Below, in pieces: positions 2,074 to 24,526 of a stretch of DNA of 64,000 nucleotides; positions within the stretch are counted from its first letter, which is position 1; every line of letters begins with the position of its first letter. This DNA comes from Candidatus Enterousia sp. (GTDB taxonomy: Bacteria; Pseudomonadota; Alphaproteobacteria; Rs-D84). The notes beneath the pieces are model-generated. The model was given only the letters and a program-made list of their open reading frames with translations, was not told the origin of the DNA and did no database searches. The position numbers were made by a program, and so were the translations under genes. The stretch lies in assembly GCA_045546075.1 (NCBI GenBank), contig JAZQCF010000017.1, positions 10,254 to 74,253 of the forward strand, in the 5' to 3' direction.

Positions 2074-5000
2074 ATGATAAAAAAACTGGCCCCCATTATA
2101 TATTGCTTGACACCGTTGTGTGCACTGGCAGACGTGATTACCGAGACCGGGACCCCCGGTGTTCCCACACCGTTTTCCGGTAATTTAACCGTTACAACCG
2201 ATTCGTATCGATTCGTATATGGGTCGGGGATAAACGTAACGGGGGGAATAAATACCGCCGGTGGATTCTATATTGGGCAAGATGCGGGTGCAAATCCAAA
2301 CGTTGGTGCGATTTATGCCGAAACGACAATCAATCCAAATTATGTGGTGACGGCGGCCGATGCGATTACGATTGGCGGGCCGTTACAGGTTAAATCTGGG
2401 TATAACCTGACCATTGGGGGGGCGGGTTCTGCGGTGGATTTGACCGTGGGTAAGGTTGATATTTATGGCGACTTGACGGTTTCAAATGTGGGGGCGGTGT
2501 CGTTTGCTGAATTTACTTCAACGAATGCGGATGCGACAATAAATGGAACATCGTTAACAATAGGAAACGGTAAATTTCAGGCATTGGGGGCCGGGGATAC
2601 AACCGTGAATATTGGAACGGGTGCGTTTAATGTTGCAAACGGCGCGATTGAAAACAAATCGTCGGGCGATATGACAATTACCGCCGGTGCGATTACCGCG
2701 CAAACCATCACGAACGAGGCAAATGAACCCAACAGTCCGGTTGGTGATTTGACGATAAATGCGGCATCTTTGACATTGACCGGCGGGGATGCAACGACAA
2801 ATGCGTCTTTTGTGAACAAGGGTAATTTTACCGGTGTCATTACCGGCGCGACAAATTTGGCGCACGGGTTTGATTTGGGTTCCATGGGCGCAACAAACAA
2901 ATTTAATTTAACAACGGGAACTTTGGTGTTGGGTGACCGTATCGCAGAATTCTATACAAATAATTTGAATTCGTTTGTGTTAAACGTAACCGGTGGCGGA
3001 ATTGATGCCGGGGCAAATGCGATTCGTAATGGAACAACAAATGACAATGCCGGTATGACATTGACCGCCCAGACTGTTGCGGCGGCGGGTATTGAAAATT
3101 TGGCGACGTTGAATATCACATCAAACGGTGCCGTTAATATGACGGGTGATGTGGTGAATTCGGGTGCGTTGGATGTTTCGGGAACTGTGTTTACGTTGGC
3201 AAACATAAATAATTCTGGGGCGGCGACGCTTTCGGGGTCGGGCGCGTTTGGTGCCAATGCAATCAGTAATTTGGCGGGCGCAGAATCTTTGACCGTTTCG
3301 GGAACCGGGGTTACCGCATCGGGTTTGATTTCAAACAATGCCGGAACAATGACGGTCCAGGCGACAAATGGTAATGTTGGCGCATTGGGATTGGTGGCAA
3401 ATGCCGGAACAATGAATGTTTCCGGTGAAACATTGAATATTGGCACATCCGGTATCGATGTCGGCGCAAATGGTTCTTTGAATACAACGGGTGATATTAT
3501 TTCAGGGGGCGAGATATCAGTTGCAAATAACCTGACGGCGGGAAGTGGTGCGGCCGCGGCGGGTGATATGGCCGTGTCTGGCGGTGTTGTCGATATAACC
3601 GTGAACAATAATGAAAAATTGTCCGTTGGTGGCAATGTTACCGCAACCGGGGGTGGCGTTGGAATGAACATAGACGCGCACACAATGGAAATTAACGGCG
3701 GTGTTTCGGCGACCGATTCGGGTAAATTGGCCTTTGGTGTGTCGGGCGGTTCAAATTATGCACTTTCGGTTGAAAATAATTTGTCGGCAACAAATGGCGG
3801 TGAAGTTTATTTATATACCAACAACGCGAGAGTATCCCAGGCAATTACAGAAAATTCCGGTTTGATTTATACAACCGATACAAATATAACCGCGGGTTCG
3901 GTTGTGGTTCAGGGTGGACTGTATTTTGATGGCGCATCGCATACAAACGGTTTTGTCGTCGATTCAGGTAATGCGTTCACGCTGAATGCGGCCCAGTTTA
4001 CATTTAACGGTGGTGGAAATGTTGCAGTCGACAATACATTAAACGTATTGCGTTTTGGCGATGCCCAGAGTTTTGTAAATATGTCGGGGACGTTTACAAA
4101 TGCCGGAACCGTTAACGTTGGCGCAAATGACAGAAGGTTTGGTTCGGTTGGACTTGGAACATTGACCAACAATGGGACGTTTAATGTTTGGACGAATCTG
4201 GTTACCGGTGGAGATATCACGAACAATACAGATGGAATTTTGACCTTGAATTCCACGGGTAATGTAACATTGGCCAATTTGACAAATGATGGTTCGGCGG
4301 ATGTTTCGGGTGCGGCGGTCGCCCTGGGGACGGTTGTGGCGAATTCTGGGAATGCAACGGGCGGGGGACTGCGCGTGAACGGAACCTCTGTGATGGCGAA
4401 TTCGTTAAGCGTTCAATCGGTGGTGGGTGCATTGGATATAAATGCGCCAAGCATCAAGATTACTGGGGCGGTAGATACGAACGGCGGTGTGTTGCACCAA
4501 GGTGCCGGTTCAACCAGTGCGATAAATTTATTGGCGGCCGAATTCACGTTTAATTCTGGTGCGTGGAATATGGATTCTTTCGTTGCGGACGGCGGAATTG
4601 GAACATATAACGTGACGGGCGCAATGAATTTTGGAACAGGTGTTATTGTTGAAAATGGTGCGCGCGTGAACTTTAAGCGCGATAATATTGATGCGCCGTT
4701 ATTTTCCGTCGCGGGCAATTTGGTCCAGAATATGTCTGGCACGGACCAAGATGGCACAGTTAATATGATATCGAACAATTTCACATTACGCGCGAATAAT
4801 GTCAACGTTGGTGGTGATATAAATGTGAATAAATTTACAATCGCGAATTTGAACGCGCCAAACGGTATGAAAATTGACGTTACCGGAAATGTTTCGGGGG
4901 GGCTGGGGATTATGGGCCTGGAATATATGACGGTTGGTGAAAATTATACGTTTGATGGTAACAGCAAACTGTTGGCAATCGCAAATTCATCGTCCACGCA

Positions 5001-6642
5001 CGATTATTGGACCGATGTAGATTTTTCGGGCGCAGAACCGTTGATAAATCCGTTGACCGGTGGCGAGACCGCGTTGATAAGCGTTAATGGTAAAATAATA
5101 AATAACGCAGCCGGATTAGATATGGGCAACACGCCGACAGATTTGGCGAATTCTCAGTTTGGTATCGTATTGACCCAGGCGGTAACGGAATCCAGTGCGT
5201 TATGGTTGGCGCACGCGGAGGCGGGGATTGAAGGGTTGCGTTTCAATCAATTAAGTGTCGGTTTCTGTAATGCCGATGGAACGCATTGTGTAAATTACTT
5301 GGATGCATTTAATACTAATAATGGTGCGGGTGAAAACCTGCCGGTGTATTTGGTAACGGTTGATAACGATTTGTATGTCGTGTTTGATACGCGCTTTGGT
5401 GAACCGATTGGTTTGTTCAAATTACAGCCGGTTGTTGGCGCAACGCCGGGACACACGTTGGGTGAATGGCAATCGGCCGGCGCGTTGGACGATGTGATTG
5501 AGGCCGCATTGGCGAATCTGGGGTACACTTACGAAACGGCGGTTTTGCCGGTGGTGGCAACTTTGTTTAACGGAACGCCATTGGAACGCGTGGACAGCGA
5601 ACTGTATGCGCGTATGTTTGATTATTCCCAGACCGGAAATGGAAAGGTGATTCGCGCCTTCAGCCGTCTGTTCCAGTTGCGCGAAGCGAACCAGATTGCG
5701 GACAGTTTGGCCCTGAACACACATACAAATTTCCGTGATATGGCCGATAGATTTATTGACGAGGCAATTTGGAATCGTAATCGTCGTTTGAATAAACTTT
5801 GGATTGATGGTTCGTATGGTATGTTCACGAACGATTTTGATGATATTCGTGGTGATGGTGACCGTTTCAGCCTTAGTTTCGGTTATGATTGGCAGGCGAA
5901 CAATACCCTGATTTTGGGTTGGATGGTGCATGGGTCATATACGGATGCGAACGTTGTTGATGATATAGATTTGGGTTATGGTAATACGGGACGTATTGCG
6001 GGCCGTATGGAATCGAATATGACAAATTTGTCGGTTGGCGGTGGACTTTATTTCTTGAACACACTGTCGAACAAGATGCGCCTGTATGGGGACGCGATGA
6101 TTGATGTGAATATGATTGATGTCGAACGCAACCAGACATGGGTTGATACGATTAAGGGTGATGCAACATCGTTCGGTGCCGTTGCCGAATTGGGGTTGAT
6201 ACACGATTGGCTGAATCAGTATATTATTGGTAATCTGTATGTGCGTGGTGGATATAACTTTGGTTTTGATATGACCGAAAAGGTTGGGGATGCGGATTAT
6301 ATGAAATTGGAATTTGATGGGTACCCAATTTTGACACCGGGTTATTCGTTGATGGTACAAAAACGTGTATATCCGTCTGCGTGGTTTGAATTCCGCCCGT
6401 ATGCAACGGTTGGTATAGAATATGATTTGTTGGGTTCGCCGGATACGATGCAATATAAATTCGCAATGGCGAATAAATGGACCGATTATAATATAGATGT
6501 TGATGCACTGTGGGCAAATGCGGGTGCGGGTGTGGAATTCCTGTGGGTGAACGGGTTACACATTGGTGCGGGTTATCGGTACCAATATAATGCCGATGTC
6601 CAGATGCACAAAATCCACGCGTCTGTGAAATACCGGTTTTAA
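2074..6642 (+). CDS. autotransporter outer-membrane protein (large beta-helical passenger plus C-terminal beta-barrel)
   Basis: 1522-aa ORF. It has a signal peptide (MIKKLAPIIYCLTPLCALA), a long Gly/Asn/Thr/Ala-rich repetitive passenger, and a C-terminal barrel-like region ending in the aromatic ...SVKYRF. Confidence 0.85.
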   Translation: MIKKLAPIIYCLTPLCALADVITETGTPGVPTPFSGNLTVTTDSYRFVYGSGINVTGGINTAGGFYIGQDAGANPNVGAIYAETTINPNYVVTAADAITIGGPLQVKSGYNLTIGGAGSAVDLTVGKVDIYGDLTVSNVGAVSFAEFTSTNADATINGTSLTIGNGKFQALGAGDTTVNIGTGAFNVANGAIENKSSGDMTITAGAITAQTITNEANEPNSPVGDLTINAASLTLTGGDATTNASFVNKGNFTGVITGATNLAHGFDLGSMGATNKFNLTTGTLVLGDRIAEFYTNNLNSFVLNVTGGGIDAGANAIRNGTTNDNAGMTLTAQTVAAAGIENLATLNITSNGAVNMTGDVVNSGALDVSGTVFTLANINNSGAATLSGSGAFGANAISNLAGAESLTVSGTGVTASGLISNNAGTMTVQATNGNVGALGLVANAGTMNVSGETLNIGTSGIDVGANGSLNTTGDIISGGEISVANNLTAGSGAAAAGDMAVSGGVVDITVNNNEKLSVGGNVTATGGGVGMNIDAHTMEINGGVSATDSGKLAFGVSGGSNYALSVENNLSATNGGEVYLYTNNARVSQAITENSGLIYTTDTNITAGSVVVQGGLYFDGASHTNGFVVDSGNAFTLNAAQFTFNGGGNVAVDNTLNVLRFGDAQSFVNMSGTFTNAGTVNVGANDRRFGSVGLGTLTNNGTFNVWTNLVTGGDITNNTDGILTLNSTGNVTLANLTNDGSADVSGAAVALGTVVANSGNATGGGLRVNGTSVMANSLSVQSVVGALDINAPSIKITGAVDTNGGVLHQGAGSTSAINLLAAEFTFNSGAWNMDSFVADGGIGTYNVTGAMNFGTGVIVENGARVNFKRDNIDAPLFSVAGNLVQNMSGTDQDGTVNMISNNFTLRANNVNVGGDINVNKFTIANLNAPNGMKIDVTGNVSGGLGIMGLEYMTVGENYTFDGNSKLLAIANSSSTHDYWTDVDFSGAEPLINPLTGGETALISVNGKIINNAAGLDMGNTPTDLANSQFGIVLTQAVTESSALWLAHAEAGIEGLRFNQLSVGFCNADGTHCVNYLDAFNTNNGAGENLPVYLVTVDNDLYVVFDTRFGEPIGLFKLQPVVGATPGHTLGEWQSAGALDDVIEAALANLGYTYETAVLPVVATLFNGTPLERVDSELYARMFDYSQTGNGKVIRAFSRLFQLREANQIADSLALNTHTNFRDMADRFIDEAIWNRNRRLNKLWIDGSYGMFTNDFDDIRGDGDRFSLSFGYDWQANNTLILGWMVHGSYTDANVVDDIDLGYGNTGRIAGRMESNMTNLSVGGGLYFLNTLSNKMRLYGDAMIDVNMIDVERNQTWVDTIKGDATSFGAVAELGLIHDWLNQYIIGNLYVRGGYNFGFDMTEKVGDADYMKLEFDGYPILTPGYSLMVQKRVYPSAWFEFRPYATVGIEYDLLGSPDTMQYKFAMANKWTDYNIDVDALWANAGAGVEFLWVNGLHIGAGYRYQYNADVQMHKIHASVKYRF

Positions 6643-6690: not shown

Positions 6691-6703
6691 TATGTTTGTG
6701 GGG

Positions 6704-6838
6704 TGGTCAAAAACGAACGTTTTTGTCCAGTACTTTTTTGATATTTTTCAAATTATAAGAAATGGCGGAAATCCGCCATTTTTAATTGACAAATACTCAT
6801 TTTAGACTGGTCACAAAAAACGTTCCTTTTTTGTTACC
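6704..6838 (+). promoter_or_regulatory. conserved 5' module of the secreted-paralog family, copy 1: two palindromes bracketing about 76 bp
   Basis: The outer palindromes are TGGTCAAAAACG-AA-CGTTTTTGTCCAG (6704-6730) and CTGGTCACAAAAAACG-TT-CCTTTTTTGTTACC (6807-6838). The inner segment carries TTGACA (6786-6791, facing the gene) and a perfect TATAAT on the bottom strand (6752-6757, facing away). Near-identical copies lie at 20096-20236 and 24412-24526. Confidence 0.7.
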
Positions 6839-6844
6839 ATTATA

Positions 6845-7005
6845 GGTGTAAAACAACGCCGTCATCCCGTTGTAAAACGGGATCTGGTGGTTCACGACGA
6901 GACTGACGAGATCCCGCGTTATACCACCCACAAAATTTTTCAAATTTTGCGGGGCCTGGTGTCGCGGGATGACGGAAGAAAGGCGGGATGACGGTGGAAA
7001 AAAAC
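6845..7005. repeat. GC-rich mosaic palindromic repeat (REP/RPE-like) inserted in the 5' leader
   Basis: Contains CGTCATCCCG...CGGGATC, GATCCCGCG...CGCGGGATGACG and GGCGGGATGACGG, plus a CCCACAAAATTTTT-CAAATTTTGCGGGG hairpin (6925-6958). GGGATGACG motifs recur at 9186-9196 and 21030-21040. This block is absent from the equivalent leaders of the paralogs. Confidence 0.6.
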
Positions 7006-7021: not shown

Positions 7022-7110
7022 ATGAGCAAAACATTATTCATTGGTGCGGTCGCATCAATTATCGCAATCAATTCAGTTTTGGCGGATACAACCGTTACAT
7101 CAAAAACGTT
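7022..7110 (+). pseudogene. 5' fragment (signal peptide only) of a secreted-paralog family gene
   Basis: The first 29 codons (MSKTLFIGAVASIIAINSVLADTTVTSKT) are near-identical in DNA to the 5' end of 23878-24381. Homology stops at the palindrome 7100-7122, and the rest of the 72-aa ORF runs through a terminator into the convergent gene. Confidence 0.6.
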
Positions 7111-7132
7111 CGTTTTTGACCACCCCGTACAT

Positions 7133-7163
7133 ACAAAAAACGCCCGGAAATCGGGCGATTTTT
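7133..7163. terminator. bidirectional Rho-independent terminator
   Basis: AAAAAA-CGCCCGG-AAA-TCGGGCG-ATTTTT, between the gene fragment (+) and the convergent 7197-8855 gene (-). Confidence 0.7.
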
Positions 7164-7196
7164 GTTGGGCAACAGAACAGGGAATCCGTTTTGTTT

Positions 7197-8855
7197 TTAT
7201 TCCAATGTGCCCAGGTGATATGCGGCCCCGCCGGACATAATGTTCATTGAATTCGCGCCGCCATCGCCCAATTCCATTGGCGTATAGCATACCGTTCCAT
7301 TGTGTTTAATATGCAATGCCGGCGTGGTTGGACTGGTGTCAAACAGCGGAAATTCCAACCCAGTGGATGTTTTGATTTTTGTAATCCCCGCACCACAGTC
7401 TTGATAACAAACATCGTTATATATGTGTTCGGTTGGATTTGCCTGGCATACGGCCCGATTATCAACCAGGCTTTCCCCCCAACCGGTTTCGGCGGACATG
7501 CTTCCGCACGGACATTCAGTATATAAATTTGTTTCTTCAAACATAAAGTCAGTGCCATATTCGCCGGGCGATGTTATATTTTCAAAAATGTTTTTTGGTA
7601 CATACCCCGATAGGTTTGAACAACCATAAAACGTCTCCGCGAACATCGCAAATGCACCTTCACCCGATAAATTACCAAATAAATTTTCAGGTATTGAACC
7701 AGTTATACCGCTTAATGCGAAAGTGCCGTTAAACATGTTTTCTGCCGGTGCACCGGAAATCCCACTGAATAAGTTTCCTGGGATTGAGCCGTTCAGTCCA
7801 CTGCAGCCTGAAAAAGTTTCGCTAAACATGTTTTCTGCCGGTGCACCGGAAATCCCGCCGAATAAGTTTCCTGGGATTGAGCCGGTTATACCGGTTGCTG
7901 CGAAAGTGCTTCTAAACATGCCTTTTGCCGGTGCACCGTAAATCCCACTGAATAAGTTTTCCGAAATTGAACCGGTTATACCGGTGTAGGTGAATGTCCT
8001 TGCAAACATAGATTCTGCCGGTGCGCCGGAAATTCCACTGAACAACCCCTCTGGAATTGAACCGGTTAATCCGCTACAATAGTCAAATGTACTTGCAAAC
8101 ATAGATTTTGCCGGTGCGCCGGAAATTCCACTGAACAACCCCTCTGGAATTGAACCGCTTAAGTAACGGCATCCTGAGAATGTACTTGCAAACATAGATT
8201 CTGCCGGTGCACCAGAAATTCCGCTGAACAATCCATCCGGAATTGAACCGTATAGCAGACTATCAGCGAATGTACGGTAAAACATGTTACTAACGGGGGC
8301 ACCAACTATACCAGTAAAAAGTTCCTCAGGAATTGTGAAATCTATGTTCCAATCCCCACAACCCTCAAAAGTAGATATAAAACGTGGTTGTGAAGTCCCT
8401 ATTGTTGGAAATATCGCGCCCAGCGAACCGGATATTGCCTCAATAACATTTGGATTTTCATTAAATCGTATGGTCGAAACATTGGTTGTATTGTATCCCG
8501 TTGCCATTCCGCCAAAGCGAATTTGATCATATACATCATACTGGTATGTGCATGTATATGTTGCTTCAGTTGTATCGGTACGGGTGATGGTTTTTCCGGA
8601 TACGCCGGTGCCGGACAGTGTGCCGCCATCGCCACAATCAACATAAAAAGTTCCCTGGGCGGATATATTGAAATTGAAAACAAATGGGTCGTAATAAAGC
8701 ATAAACCGAATCGCGAACTTCGCCGTTTCGCATTGGGTGCCGTCGCCCAAAACGTCTATTTCGTTTTCGGCACATGCCGCGCGTGCAACCGTTGGCATCA
8801 TATACATTATGCCCATGATAATTGTGATGATGATTGTTTTTAATGGCTTTAACAT
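7197..8855 (-). CDS. secreted protein with about eight 30-aa tandem repeats (LRR-like) and a Cys-rich C-terminal domain
   Basis: Signal peptide MLKPLKTIIITIIMGIMYMMPTVARA; repeats of the form GSIPxxLFSGISGAPAxxMFxxTF(SGC). Start set at the ATG 9 nt after GGGGGG; the ATG at 8864 and the ORF-track start at 8915 are alternatives. The LRR assignment is only pattern-based. Confidence 0.7.
   Translation of the reverse strand: MLKPLKTIIITIIMGIMYMMPTVARAACAENEIDVLGDGTQCETAKFAIRFMLYYDPFVFNFNISAQGTFYVDCGDGGTLSGTGVSGKTITRTDTTEATYTCTYQYDVYDQIRFGGMATGYNTTNVSTIRFNENPNVIEAISGSLGAIFPTIGTSQPRFISTFEGCGDWNIDFTIPEELFTGIVGAPVSNMFYRTFADSLLYGSIPDGLFSGISGAPAESMFASTFSGCRYLSGSIPEGLFSGISGAPAKSMFASTFDYCSGLTGSIPEGLFSGISGAPAESMFARTFTYTGITGSISENLFSGIYGAPAKGMFRSTFAATGITGSIPGNLFGGISGAPAENMFSETFSGCSGLNGSIPGNLFSGISGAPAENMFNGTFALSGITGSIPENLFGNLSGEGAFAMFAETFYGCSNLSGYVPKNIFENITSPGEYGTDFMFEETNLYTECPCGSMSAETGWGESLVDNRAVCQANPTEHIYNDVCYQDCGAGITKIKTSTGLEFPLFDTSPTTPALHIKHNGTVCYTPMELGDGGANSMNIMSGGAAYHLGTLE
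7650..8335 (-). repeat. about 90-bp tandem coding repeats (some units near-identical)
   Basis: The AAACATG/AAACATA landmark recurs at 7731, 7824, 7914, 8004, 8097, 8190 and 8280. Units 8003-8065, 8095-8160 and 8185-8250 are almost identical, as are 7732-7795 and 7822-7885. Confidence 0.85.
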
Positions 8856-9134
8856 TTGGCGCATCCCCCCGTTTGGTTCACGGTTTATGTGCGCACAAAA
8901 AAAATTGGACGGCACATCAACCGGTCCAATGGCGTTTTCCCCAAATAAAAAGCCTTGGAATTAAATTCTTGTGTTTGCTTGGTTCAAAATCTGGTTAGAT
9001 TATATCAAAAATGTGAATTTATGGCAAGGGGAAAATCTTGCCACAGACATCCACACCCCGTCGGGTTACACCCGCCACCCCTCTCTAGAGGGGAACTTTT
9101 TGTCTCGCGCAGGCGCGCGAACATAAAATTAACT

Positions 9135-9213
9135 GTCTGCGACGCAAGTTTACGGCGTTGCCGTAAACTGGGTCCCGCGCTTCCGCGGGATGACGAAAGA
9201 TGAAGGTCTGCGA
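9135..9213. repeat. 63-bp GC-rich hairpin element flanked by 8-bp direct repeats (MITE/REP-like)
   Basis: GTCTGCGA at 9135-9142 and 9206-9213 flanks TTTACGGC-GTT-GCCGTAAA and CCCGCG-CTTC-CGCGGG hairpins followed by ATGACG. More GC hairpins lie just upstream, such as CCCCTC-TCTA-GAGGGG. Confidence 0.5.
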
Positions 9214-9729: not shown

Positions 9730-9814
9730 TTTCGCTTCCTTTGGTTTATATATACTTTCATTGAAGCAATATTTACAATCAAAATCAAGAAAAATGTCCA
9801 GACCCGTAATAGAC

Positions 9815-9843
9815 TTGACTTTTTTGGGAAAAAGGACTATAAT
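9815..9843 (+). promoter_or_regulatory. sigma70-like promoter of rho (TTGACT-N17-TATAAT)
   Basis: TTGACT at 9815-9820 and TATAAT at 9838-9843, about 60 nt upstream of the rho ATG. Confidence 0.6.
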
Positions 9844-9902
9844 AATGGCATCAATCGGGCGCGTTCGCGTCACGAAATATCCCAGATATCAAAGGAATTA
9901 TT

Positions 9903-11171
<1,269 letters not shown>

Positions 11172-19426: not shown

Positions 19427-19452
19427 AAAAAACGCCCAATCGGGCGTTTTTT
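19427..19452. terminator. bidirectional Rho-independent terminator
   Basis: AAAAAA-CGCCC-AATC-GGGCG-TTTTTT between prfA (+) and the convergent 19451-19963 gene (-). Confidence 0.75.
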
Positions 19453-19963
19453 AATCCGGCAAATTCCACAGCAGGCAATTTTCGCTGGTTTCTGCCGCGC
19501 CATCCAGGTATCGAACACAGATTTTGTTTTTTTGCTTTGCGCTTATGCGGCTGTTCGAAAGTTTAAATGCCCGGTCAAGAACTTCAGCCGATACGATACT
19601 GTTTTTTATATCACTTTCGCCAAGTCCATGGAACAGTTCTGCATCATCGGCCATTTGTTGGACCATATACCCATCGGCCAATTTGGTCCCCCAAGCCTCA
19701 CTGGTGGGTCCAGTCCAACCATTGGTGCCGCCTTGGATAATATAACGTTTTGCAATAACGCCGTCTGTGTCTGTATCTGTAATGACGGCGGTAGGCATTG
19801 ACAGGTTAAATTGTCCGCCTGTGCCTCTTGGTGATATTTTGTCTTGTTTTGTTTCAACCCGGGTATCAACATAGTTTTGTGTGGTGATGGTCTGTGTATC
19901 TGCCAAAACTGAATTGATTGTGATTATTGATGCGATTGCACCAAGTAATAATTTTTTGCTCAT
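19451..19963 (-). CDS. small secreted protein, paralog family member (170 aa)
   Basis: ORF trimmed to MSKKLLLGAIASIITINSVLADT after AGAGGGAAAATATG. It shares the signal peptide, NYVDT and ENCLLWNL motifs with 23878-24381. Confidence 0.75.
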   Translation of the reverse strand: MSKKLLLGAIASIITINSVLADTQTITTQNYVDTRVETKQDKISPRGTGGQFNLSMPTAVITDTDTDGVIAKRYIIQGGTNGWTGPTSEAWGTKLADGYMVQQMADDAELFHGLGESDIKNSIVSAEVLDRAFKLSNSRISAKQKNKICVRYLDGAAETSENCLLWNLPD

Positions 19964-20095
19964 ATTTTCCCTCTTTCTGTTTCGTGTTTCGCTCGGCATA
20001 AAATATGCCTGCGCGCAAATTTGTGTTTTTGTTCGAACTTCGCTAACGCTCGTTCTTACATACAAATTTTGCTTGTTTGATTTTATGTCTATAAT

Positions 20096-20236
20096 GATAA
20101 CAAAAAAGGAACGTTTTTTGTGACCAGTCTAAAATGAATTTTTGTCAACTTGGGGGGTCGCAAGAATCCGCCATTTCTTATAATTTGAAAAACATCAAAA
20201 AAGCACTGGACAAAAACGTTCGTTTTTTGTGACCAG
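20096..20236 (-). promoter_or_regulatory. conserved 5' module of the secreted-paralog family, copy 2 (same orientation relative to its gene as copy 1)
   Basis: The outer palindromes lie at 20096-20127 and 20206-20236. The inner segment is near-identical to copy 1; TTGACA (20143-20148, minus strand) faces the gene and TATAAT (20179-20184, + strand) faces away. Confidence 0.7.
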
Positions 20237-20765: not shown

Positions 20766-21238
20766 CTGTTTTCTGTTGCCTTGTCGTTGTTTGTTGTGTG
20801 GCCCTAATGCGCCGCAGACATATAAATATATGCCAAATAAAATTTTGCTCGCTATTAGACGCGTGGACATCTAATAAATATGTGTTCGATGAAAATTTGT
20901 GCGTATTAGACTTTATTGGTCATCCCGTTGAAAAAGTTGGTGTGCGGCCAAAGAAATTTCGGTTTGTGCCTTGGTGGCAATTAAATGCCGTGGACTGGTG
21001 GTGTGCCTGCGGATATTTCGTTTTACAACGGGATGACGACTTTGATATGCGGAATGGGTGCATAAGTCCCGAAAATTTGTAAAAACCGCCCTATTCTGGC
21101 CCCGGAATTTTGAAAAAATGGCGGATTTCTGCGGCTTTGCGGCGGTTTTTGTGTCGAAAAAAGAAGATTTTTTGCCCCAACCCGTCCAAAAATGATATTT
21201 TTGCGCGAATTTTTGTTTGGTTTCAATTTATTTTGCGC

Positions 21239-23877: not shown

Positions 23878-24381
23878 TTAATAATTATAGCATTGGCACG
23901 TGCCACCACTGCAATGTGGAGTTTTACACTCTGCGCCAACAATCCCGACACAATCCGCATTTGTTGTGCACTGTTTTGCCGTAACATTAACATCAATCAG
24001 GTTCCATAACAGACAGTTTTCGTCCGTGCCTTGGCCCGGTTCGGCATCCCATTCTACGCACTGCTTATGTGTAACCGTTTTTTCTTGGGATGGTATCGCA
24101 GAAAATGCGGCGCGTGCGGTAATCAGTTTATCGCCGTCATCGTCATAATCAAAATCAACGATGCCCGCATTATAAATCCCGCGTTCACCGATTTGTCCCG
24201 CGGTATCAGTATATGTGACAACGGTTTCGCCGGGTGTATCTTCGTTTGTGCCCGCAACCGGGATTGTTGCCTGGCGCGTGGTATCAACGTACGTTTTTGA
24301 TGTAACGGTTGTATCCGCGAATACTGAATTAATTGCGATTATTGATGCAACCGCACCAATGAATAATGTTTTTTTGCTCAT
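23878..24381 (-). CDS. small secreted protein, paralog family member (167 aa)
   Basis: MSKKTLFIGAVASIIAINSVFADTTVTSKTYVDT..., ENCLLWNL, and a Cys-rich C-terminus. The RBS is AAAGGGGAACATATG. Confidence 0.75.
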   Translation of the reverse strand: MSKKTLFIGAVASIIAINSVFADTTVTSKTYVDTTRQATIPVAGTNEDTPGETVVTYTDTAGQIGERGIYNAGIVDFDYDDDGDKLITARAAFSAIPSQEKTVTHKQCVEWDAEPGQGTDENCLLWNLIDVNVTAKQCTTNADCVGIVGAECKTPHCSGGTCQCYNY

Positions 24382-24411
24382 ATGTTCCCCTTTATTCCTA
24401 TGATTAAAAGT

Positions 24412-24526
24412 GTAACAAAAACGAACGTTTTTGTCCAGTGCTTTTTTGGAAAAAATTATTCAGTAAAATCAACAACAGTAAAGTCCGCAAAATGGGGGGA
24501 CAAAAACGTTCGTTTTTTTTGACCAC
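24412..24526 (-). promoter_or_regulatory. conserved 5' module of the secreted-paralog family, copy 3, with the inner segment inverted relative to copies 1 and 2
   Basis: The outer arms match those of copies 1 and 2 in gene orientation. The junction CGTTTTTGTCCAGTGCTTTTTT is gene-distal in copies 1 and 2 but gene-proximal here (24422-24448). Confidence 0.65.

Follow-up and report, generated by a model that had tools for sequence, protein, structure and literature searches.

The 64-kb stretch of DNA from Candidatus Enterousia sp. that was analyzed here (the window) contains three loci of one secreted-protein family (copies 1 to 3), each preceded by a module in which two near-palindromic sites of approximately 28 bp enclose a short inner segment. 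Alignment with related genomes shows that the interior of the copy 3 module has been turned round compared with that of related modules, which is predicted to place a better -35 hexamer next to a -10 element that stays where it is. A DNA-inversion switch that exchanges the -35 element and is catalyzed by an unlinked site-specific recombinase has about an even chance of being the right explanation. Programmed switching as such is plausible, unproven and just as evenly balanced.

The sites were found at all three loci where the original prediction, made from the window alone, had placed them, and they share the core CAAAAACG-AA/TT-CGTTTTTG. The motif CAAAAACGNNCGTTTTTG occurred ten times in the window when up to three mismatches were allowed, against 2.0 expected matches, and none of 100 shuffled sequences reached ten. 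Ahead of copy 3, the distal site (24497 - 24526, core 24501 - 24518) reads GGTCAAAAAAAACG-AA-CGTTTTTGTCC in gene orientation and the proximal site (24412 - 24439, core 24416 - 24433) reads TGGACAAAAACG-TT-CGTTTTTGTTAC; the putatively invertible inner segment between the two site centres (24425 - 24509) measures 85 bp. The corresponding sites of copy 1 lie at 6703 - 6733 (distal, core 6708 - 6725, centre AA) and 6808 - 6841 (proximal, core 6815 - 6832, centre TT), the latter being followed by a TG-extended TACCAT, and those of copy 2 at 20204 - 20236 (distal, core 20211 - 20228) and 20095 - 20127 (proximal, core 20102 - 20119), with centre-to-centre distances of 107 bp and 109 bp, respectively. 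When read in gene orientation, all three copies had the central dinucleotide AA in the distal and TT in the proximal site, so that the partner sites are in inverted orientation.

In copies 1 and 2, the block CGTTTTTGTCCAGTRCTTTTTTG occupies the distal site, whereas copy 3 carries it at the proximal site, which confirms the exchange of an inner arm on which the original prediction was built. As a reverse complement, the inner segment of copy 3 was significantly similar to those of copies 1 and 2 (P ≤ 0.001), and this was due to the same block. The weak reverse-complement likeness that had been reported for the remainder of the inner segment did not hold up; without the 22-nt block, the match was at chance level in either orientation (P ~0.3), and copies 1 and 2 carry a different inner-segment type from copy 3. 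Since the original prediction itself had asked for similarity above chance beyond the palindrome arms, the window alone would leave the flip open. Related genomes provided a closer counterpart. Copy 3 and a locus of the rumen metagenome-assembled genome (MAG) RGIG3338 (L015) aligned as reverse complements over approximately 105 bp with 92% identity (score 170), and their direct alignment was limited to the distal site (score 56). The outer arms of both loci aligned directly while the interior was reversed. Similarly, the RUG585 orthologue of the copy 3 locus, recognizable from the gene order S9, family gene and trigger factor, had the opposite orientation. Inversion between the palindromes was thus borne out, and so was crossover at the palindromes, to the extent that the breakpoints fall inside the sites.

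A scan of species-representative genomes retrieved 50 family loci from eight MAGs of uncultured rumen Alphaproteobacteria, among which RUG585, with a genome of approximately 0.9 Mb, contained at least 14 family copies. The module was present ahead of nearly every family copy and displayed a constant order of distal site, conserved inner segment, proximal site, -10-like element, Shine-Dalgarno sequence and ATG start codon. All modules found preceded family genes, among them a divergent member, and none lay elsewhere in approximately 0.9 Mb. Orientation was scored for the 37 modules with a recognizable inner core, 30 of which were in the majority orientation (F) and seven in the minority orientation (R), the latter being window copy 3, L025:7294, L025:259, L021:6041, L016:5282, L017:16184 and the L072 orthologue of this last module. 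The R inner segments were 88 - 100% identical to F modules, L025:7294 (R) and L050 (F) being 100% identical, which indicates that flipping took place recently on the scale of sequence divergence. At least six separate flips took place in the clade. A comparison across related genomes, set beforehand as a check on the original prediction, revealed no common fixed orientation. Indeed, four of the eight orthologous module pairs between species were opposite in orientation, with 85 - 93% identity of their flanks. The inner segment was far better conserved than the coding sequence, reaching 100% identity between species with flanks that were approximately 90% identical, and the same was true of the sites in comparison with the downstream coding sequence. 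The observation of both orientations against fixed flanks is limited to comparisons between loci and species. A scan of JGI metagenomes with the conserved inner core gave two chance matches only.

The flip changes the sequence at the -35 position and the spacer length. In copy 3, a promoter scan predicted a -35 hexamer TGGACA (24432 - 24437, minus strand) in the inner arm and a TG-extended -10 element TGtTACACT (24409 - 24417, minus strand) in the proximal outer arm, corresponding to TGGACA-17-TACACT with TG ahead of the -10. Because of these positions, the -35 hexamer moves with the segment and the -10 element remains fixed upon flipping. R modules yielded a predicted sigma-70-type promoter across the proximal site, consisting of TGGACA, a 17-nt spacer and TG followed by TACACT or TACCAT, and no promoter was called in a scan of an F module. 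The fixed -10 element in the proximal outer arm occurred as TACACT, TACCAT, CATAAT or TATCAT, each after TG. In the R state, TGGACA lies 17 - 18 nt from it. In the F state, the hexamer at the -35 position is poor and, in most module types, TGGTCA lies 19 - 21 nt away, this arm being 2 - 4 bases further off because its A-run is longer. For example, copy 1 (F) had no -35-like hexamer at 16 - 18 nt, the nearest TGGTCA being approximately 21 nt away.

Every module was furthermore flipped in silico, and the closeness of its -35 hexamer to TTGACA and the summed score were compared between both states. Every F module gained a hexamer closer to TTGACA at 17 - 18 nt, which was TGGACA in most cases, and every R module lost TGGACA. 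For the divergent modules of RUG14636, the hexamer gained was TTGATT in most, and the summed score increased in four and was unchanged in three. This suggests that the module is a split promoter, in which inversion swaps the -35 hexamer and alters the spacer length while the -10 element stays fixed. As the R state contains a near-consensus sigma-70 promoter, it is predicted to be ON and the F state to be OFF or low. Copy 3 would then be ON, copies 1 and 2 would be OFF, and most family members would be OFF in the consensus sequence of each genome. The TATAAT, TGAATAAT and TTGACA elements to which the original prediction had attributed a promoter role were present as described, but they were not conserved in the family as promoter elements. 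A role of the palindromes as intrinsic terminators was rejected, as their stems are A/T-rich, the T-run is 7 nt away from the stem and no terminator was called by the scan.

The proposed mechanism of the switch may be summarized as follows. Two near-palindromes that are mutual inverted repeats bracket 85 - 109 bp ahead of each family gene, and recombination between the two site centres, occurring within a population, would flip the segment. The -35 position would then be occupied by whichever inner arm adjoins the fixed proximal outer arm. The catalyst would most likely be a site-specific recombinase with its gene at another place in the genome; the segment itself is too short to hold an invertase gene. 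A bend in the middle of the segment, at an integration host factor (IHF)-like site in the common module type, may allow sites that are only 85 bp apart to meet. A family of which most members are OFF and a few are ON would be expected for the expression of variable surface or secreted antigens.

Several features of the modules suggest that proteins act on them. The central 4 bp match between partner sites and vary by lineage (GAAC/GTTC, CAAG/CTTG and GTAC), the sole exception being the decayed module L016:5282 (GGTGCC), and asymmetric centres always have AA at the distal and TT at the proximal site. The spacing falls into two classes, 85 - 86 bp and 107 - 109 bp, which are about two helical turns apart (approximately 8 and 10 turns). 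A strict IHF-type motif (AATCAATGACTTA; background of 0.125 per kb) is located mid-segment in the common module type, and it was absent from window copies 1 to 3. In single-strand folds, the two sites of a module form a long stem of approximately 20 bp (z -3.5 to -7.2). A function as RNA hairpins was discarded, because the sites are symmetric up to the central 2 bp and a hairpin would not need this much symmetry in its loop. The matched centres, the spacing, the IHF motif and the site layout fit a recombination complex and a looping repressor equally well.

Several observations weigh against a programmed switch. Assemblies of the same strain from different samples had an identical orientation in 46 of 46 locus-by-assembly observations at eight loci, indicating a slow or strongly biased process, or one that is not programmed. 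Minority states are hidden in consensus assemblies, and a biased switch would look alike; such constancy would not be expected of a fast, unbiased switch exposed to selection that differs between samples. As a search for proteins identical to the copy 3 product retrieved no other contig, the window strain itself is not comparable across samples. The predicted contrast between both states could also be small, since they differ by a single -35 base (TGGACA versus TGGTCA or GGGACA) in copy 3 and the type B modules, and a TG-extended -10 element may work despite a weak -35. As to the sites, their arms are 11 - 14 nt long, and many relatives have a symmetric GTAC centre (TA core), which leaves the sites without polarity. 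Moreover, all modules descend from one ancestor, so that their shared design amounts to few independent observations. Lastly, the window contained neither a serine recombinase nor a catalytically complete tyrosine recombinase (tblastn, and Pfam on approximately 50 open reading frames (ORFs)), in agreement with the original prediction that no invertase gene lies in it. Hin, gamma-delta resolvase, XerD and FimB were used as tblastn queries against the window and 0.93 Mb of related loci; Hin and gamma-delta resolvase had no match at E ≤ 0.01 in either, and the related loci yielded only XerD-like genes, in L011 and L027. The search reached only about one quarter of each genome, by its own estimate, so the absence of a recombinase is not established and an unlinked invertase may exist.

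One integrase-like protein of 334 amino acids was considered as a candidate invertase. It was encoded in L025 (3900 - 4904), L017 (6651 - 7643), L020 (5371 - 6330) and L070 (4607 - 5611), was 89 - 93% identical across three species, and was embedded in the gene order lepA, small ORF(s), integrase-like gene, acpP, fabF, small ORF and family gene, 2.4 kb from one family gene; the window contained no homologue. The protein possesses arm-binding and core-binding domains and was rejected as an invertase because it is without a recognizable catalytic domain. It may be a domesticated integrase.

The constancy within strains and the outcome of the recombinase search also bear on the other explanations of the module. 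The palindromes could be operators of a dimeric or tetrameric regulator that loops the 85 - 109 bp separating them, with a bending protein at the apex, and thereby represses the promoter at the proximal site. The inversions would then be near-neutral and incidental, arising because two almost identical palindromes lie close to each other. The layout of such an operator pair is indeed present, with two palindromes in helical phase, approximately 8 or 10 turns apart, and the proximal one overlapping the predicted promoter by spanning the spacer between -35 and -10. The palindromy extends up to the centre and is kept through lineage changes (CGAACG, GGTACC and CCAAGG), the IHF-like motif lies in the middle of the loop, and both the 46 invariant same-strain observations and the recombinases not found in the window or the related loci searched are in line with it. 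However, operators leave unexplained why the distal inner arm has a -35-like hexamer at the right distance in diverged lineages, why asymmetric centres keep a constant inverted orientation, and why orientations are distributed 30:7 rather than evenly if flips are neutral; nor does a candidate regulator gene adjoin the loci (Pfam, approximately 50 window ORFs). Looping operators are considered rather unlikely. If they were nonetheless the correct explanation, palindromic operators would cause recurrent local inversions, which would call for caution in predicting invertons from sequence only. The same exchange of the -35 hexamer could also proceed without a dedicated enzyme, through rare RecA-dependent or template-switching flips between repeats of approximately 20 - 28 bp that are occasionally fixed, and would then slowly change, over evolutionary time, which family members are expressed. 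This would agree with the long stem that partner sites can form, with the deletions at sites in the clade (precise in L011; further in L012, L032, L053 and at window positions 7101 - 7118), with the failure to find a recombinase in the window or the 0.93 Mb of related loci, and with the combination of no polymorphism within strains and opposite orientations in four of eight orthologous pairs between species. It would leave unexplained the 100% identity of inner segments between species with flanks of approximately 90% identity, as well as the helical phasing and the recombinase-site-like layout; furthermore, short and imperfect inverted repeats recombine very inefficiently by homology. Spontaneous flipping is considered an unlikely explanation.

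Two further explanations fit the data far less well. The module has the length (approximately 130 bp), the terminal inverted repeats and the central IHF-like motif of a Correia-type miniature transposable element, and might be a relic of one that was copied along with the family gene and of which the palindromes are now functionless. The reverse complement of its proximal outer end (TATAGTGTAACAAAAAGGTACC) also seems to resemble the terminal repeat of Correia elements. However, the modules always lie in the same position ahead of family genes and occur nowhere else in approximately 0.9 Mb, no target-site duplication is visible at their ends, and the coding sequence downstream is far less conserved than their sites and inner segment, which makes such a relic very improbable. 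An assembly artefact at short inverted repeats could account for the minority orientation, given that contigs often break in or at modules, in some cases exactly at the centre of a palindrome (L076 and L085). The module of approximately 130 bp is, however, shorter than a read or the final assembler k-mer (k141, according to the record names), and the R orientation was repeated in independent assemblies (7/7, 4/4, 3/3, 3/3 and 2/2), indicating that the flips are not assembly noise. The probability of an artefact is therefore practically negligible. Contig ends within or at modules, or at the conserved 5' end of family genes, were recorded at the starts of L076, L085, L031 and L080 - L082 and at the ends of L013, L047, L048, L051, L053 and L054. 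They were not retained as evidence of heterogeneity, because multi-copy repeats and palindrome centres explain such breaks equally well.

Among known systems, the mpl (P35) family of Mycoplasma penetrans is the closest analogue of the proposed switch in terms of logic. It comprises 38 lipoprotein genes, each of which is believed to carry an individual invertible promoter, and a trans-acting recombinase has been proposed, Xer-like tyrosine recombinase genes being located near mpl genes (PMC2268961, citing Horino et al. 2003). Both systems involve a multi-copy surface or secreted family in a small genome, spread over several loci, with a short invertible element for each gene. In M. penetrans, however, the element is believed to contain the whole promoter, whereas the present module exchanges just the -35 hexamer and the spacer length; recombinase genes are nearby there and none is linked here; the sites described here are themselves near-palindromes; and switching has been demonstrated experimentally there, whereas here flips are seen between loci and species. 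In Bacteroides fragilis, dispersed promoters of surface structures lie between related inverted repeats and are flipped by one serine recombinase, Mpi, that is encoded elsewhere (PMC2268961). The many dispersed promoters with related inverted repeats and the single unlinked enzyme, the latter being only proposed here, are common to both, but B. fragilis belongs to another phylum and its orientations vary readily between samples, whereas no polymorphism was seen here. The invertible regions of B. fragilis measure approximately 170 - 230 bp and contain a full promoter, against 85 - 109 bp for the present module. The core of the Bacteroides repeat is presumably ARACGTWCGT, in which case the window sites (AAACGTTCGT) would match it. 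The module is distinct from mpl and Bacteroides promoters in its size of 85 - 109 bp, its palindromic sites, its split promoter and the lack of a linked recombinase.

The sites themselves resemble the hix and gix sites of the Hin, Gin, Cin and Pin invertases. The gix sites, as read from the Mu genome, are TTATCCAAAACC-TC-GGTTTACAGGAA and TTCCTGTAAACC-GA-GGTTTTGGATAA. Features in common are the design of 12 + 2 + 12 bp, with an A-tract and then two G/C bases on each side, and a central dinucleotide that is opposite at partner sites, as is the case for the AA and TT of the window and for RUG14636, of which the sites read AAAAACC-AA/TT-GGTTT, compared with AAAAACG-AA/TT-CGTTT for the window. They differ in that an invertase gene was not found here (window and 0.93 Mb of related loci), in the arm length of 11 - 14 nt and in the TA centre of many relatives. 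In addition, the invertible segments of the Hin family are far longer than 85 - 109 bp and require an enhancer and Fis. The fimS element of Escherichia coli is a short invertible element for a surface structure, of 314 bp, with 9-bp inverted repeats, the whole promoter inside and the recombinase genes (FimB/FimE) adjacent. Its synapsis requires internal bending proteins (IHF and Lrp), whereas a role of IHF in the present module is only suggested by a motif, and one orientation of fimS usually dominates in genome assemblies. Looping operators have their own precedent in the GalR/HU repressosome, which involves two operators, a loop of approximately 113 bp and an architectural protein at its apex. 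The two palindromes 85 - 109 bp apart in helical phase, the bend site between them and the overlap with the promoter are alike, but no inversion takes place at gal and no regulator was identified here. It is conceivable, if doubtful, that the modules constitute a new class of mini-invertons that combines hix-like palindromes, an unlinked housekeeping or non-canonical recombinase, an exchange of the -35 hexamer and spacer, one switch ahead of each of at least 14 members of a hypervariable family, and mycoplasma-style antigenic variation.

The genes of copies 3 (23878 - 24381, minus strand; 167 amino acids) and 2 (19451 - 19963, minus strand; 170 amino acids from the ATG at 19963) are intact. 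In the copy 3 product, a signal peptide and a conserved N-terminal region (ADTTVTSKTYVDTTRQATIP...) are combined with a variable C-terminus rich in Cys, a build that is found throughout the family with a highly conserved N-terminal region. The 159 relatives of the copy 3 product all occur in uncultured rumen Alphaproteobacteria, and a scan of viral contigs revealed none. A Pfam search of family proteins retrieved no domains, the AlphaFold model was of low confidence (predicted local distance difference test score of 62) and a fold search of the PDB gave no match at E ≤ 0.001.

Copy 1 is a remnant (7022 - 7240, plus strand; 72 codons), with family homology in approximately the first 32 codons only. 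Its homology to the copy 3 gene stops exactly at a third site in its reading frame (7096 - 7125, with a perfect 18-bp core at 7101 - 7118), which the original prediction did not mention. The right flank of this core consists of GACCACCCC and a terminator-like hairpin with a T-run, and resembles the distal outer flank of a minus-strand module. At the equivalent codons (24282 - 24299), the intact copy 3 gene contains a pseudo-site (TCAAAAACGTACG, codons S-K-T-Y-V). The simplest reading of the remnant is an old deletion that joined a pseudo-site in the coding sequence to a real site of a minus-strand module that was lost. The third site of copy 1 and the pseudo-site of copy 3 suggest that the sites are hot spots not only of inversion but also of deletion. 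Short palindromic repeats of GTCATCCCG and CGGGATGAC are inserted ahead of copy 1, separating its proximal site from its start codon (6858 - 6995), and were also encountered near 9186 and at 20919 - 21037 of the window and in L011, L015, L025, L036 and L042. They are intergenic in related genomes and look like small repetitive elements similar to repetitive extragenic palindromic sequences or miniature inverted-repeat transposable elements. Copy 1 is flanked by genes for large proteins of 1522 amino acids (2074 - 6642, plus strand) and 572 amino acids (7197 - 8915, minus strand), neither of which had a Pfam match. The former has an outer-membrane-protein-like C-terminus (...YRF) and the latter contains repeats of approximately 20 residues (GSIPEGLFSGISGAPAESMF).

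Several loci outside the window departed from the usual module. A single hybrid site at approximately 9940 - 9975 in L011, composed of a distal and a proximal outer arm, corresponds to a precise deletion of the inner segment. Decayed modules were found in L012 (approximately 9925 - 9975) and L032 (approximately 9870 - 9985), both having lost the proximal site, and in L053 (approximately 9840 - 9870), with a 9-bp deletion inside the distal site. In L016 (5090 - 5282), at the clpB-groES locus of RUG585, an R module precedes a truncated family member of 116 amino acids. The centre of its proximal site is mutated (GGTGCC versus CGTACC at the distal site) and its orientation was R in seven of seven assemblies; it may be a locked switch. 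The family member P0004 of RUG14636 (L009, approximately 9760 - 10000) lacks a module and has an ordinary-looking TTGACA-type promoter instead, indicating that not all family members would be under inversion control. At the locus formed by PGK, a family gene and an AMP-binding enzyme, two close strains possess different family genes (L072, 3001 - 3516, and L017, 16184 - 16582). The flanks are 92 - 98% identical and the gene is replaced, which indicates that coding cassettes also move between loci.

Variation of surface-protein families by DNA inversion has been documented mainly in mycoplasmas and Bacteroides. If the modules described here are indeed DNA-inversion switches, a large secreted or surface protein family would be varied by the same means in uncultured rumen Alphaproteobacteria with very small genomes. 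Their switch would be unusually economical, measuring approximately 85 bp and with recombination sites that double as promoter elements. The interaction of these organisms with the host or with phages would then become testable by read mapping in existing rumen metagenomes.

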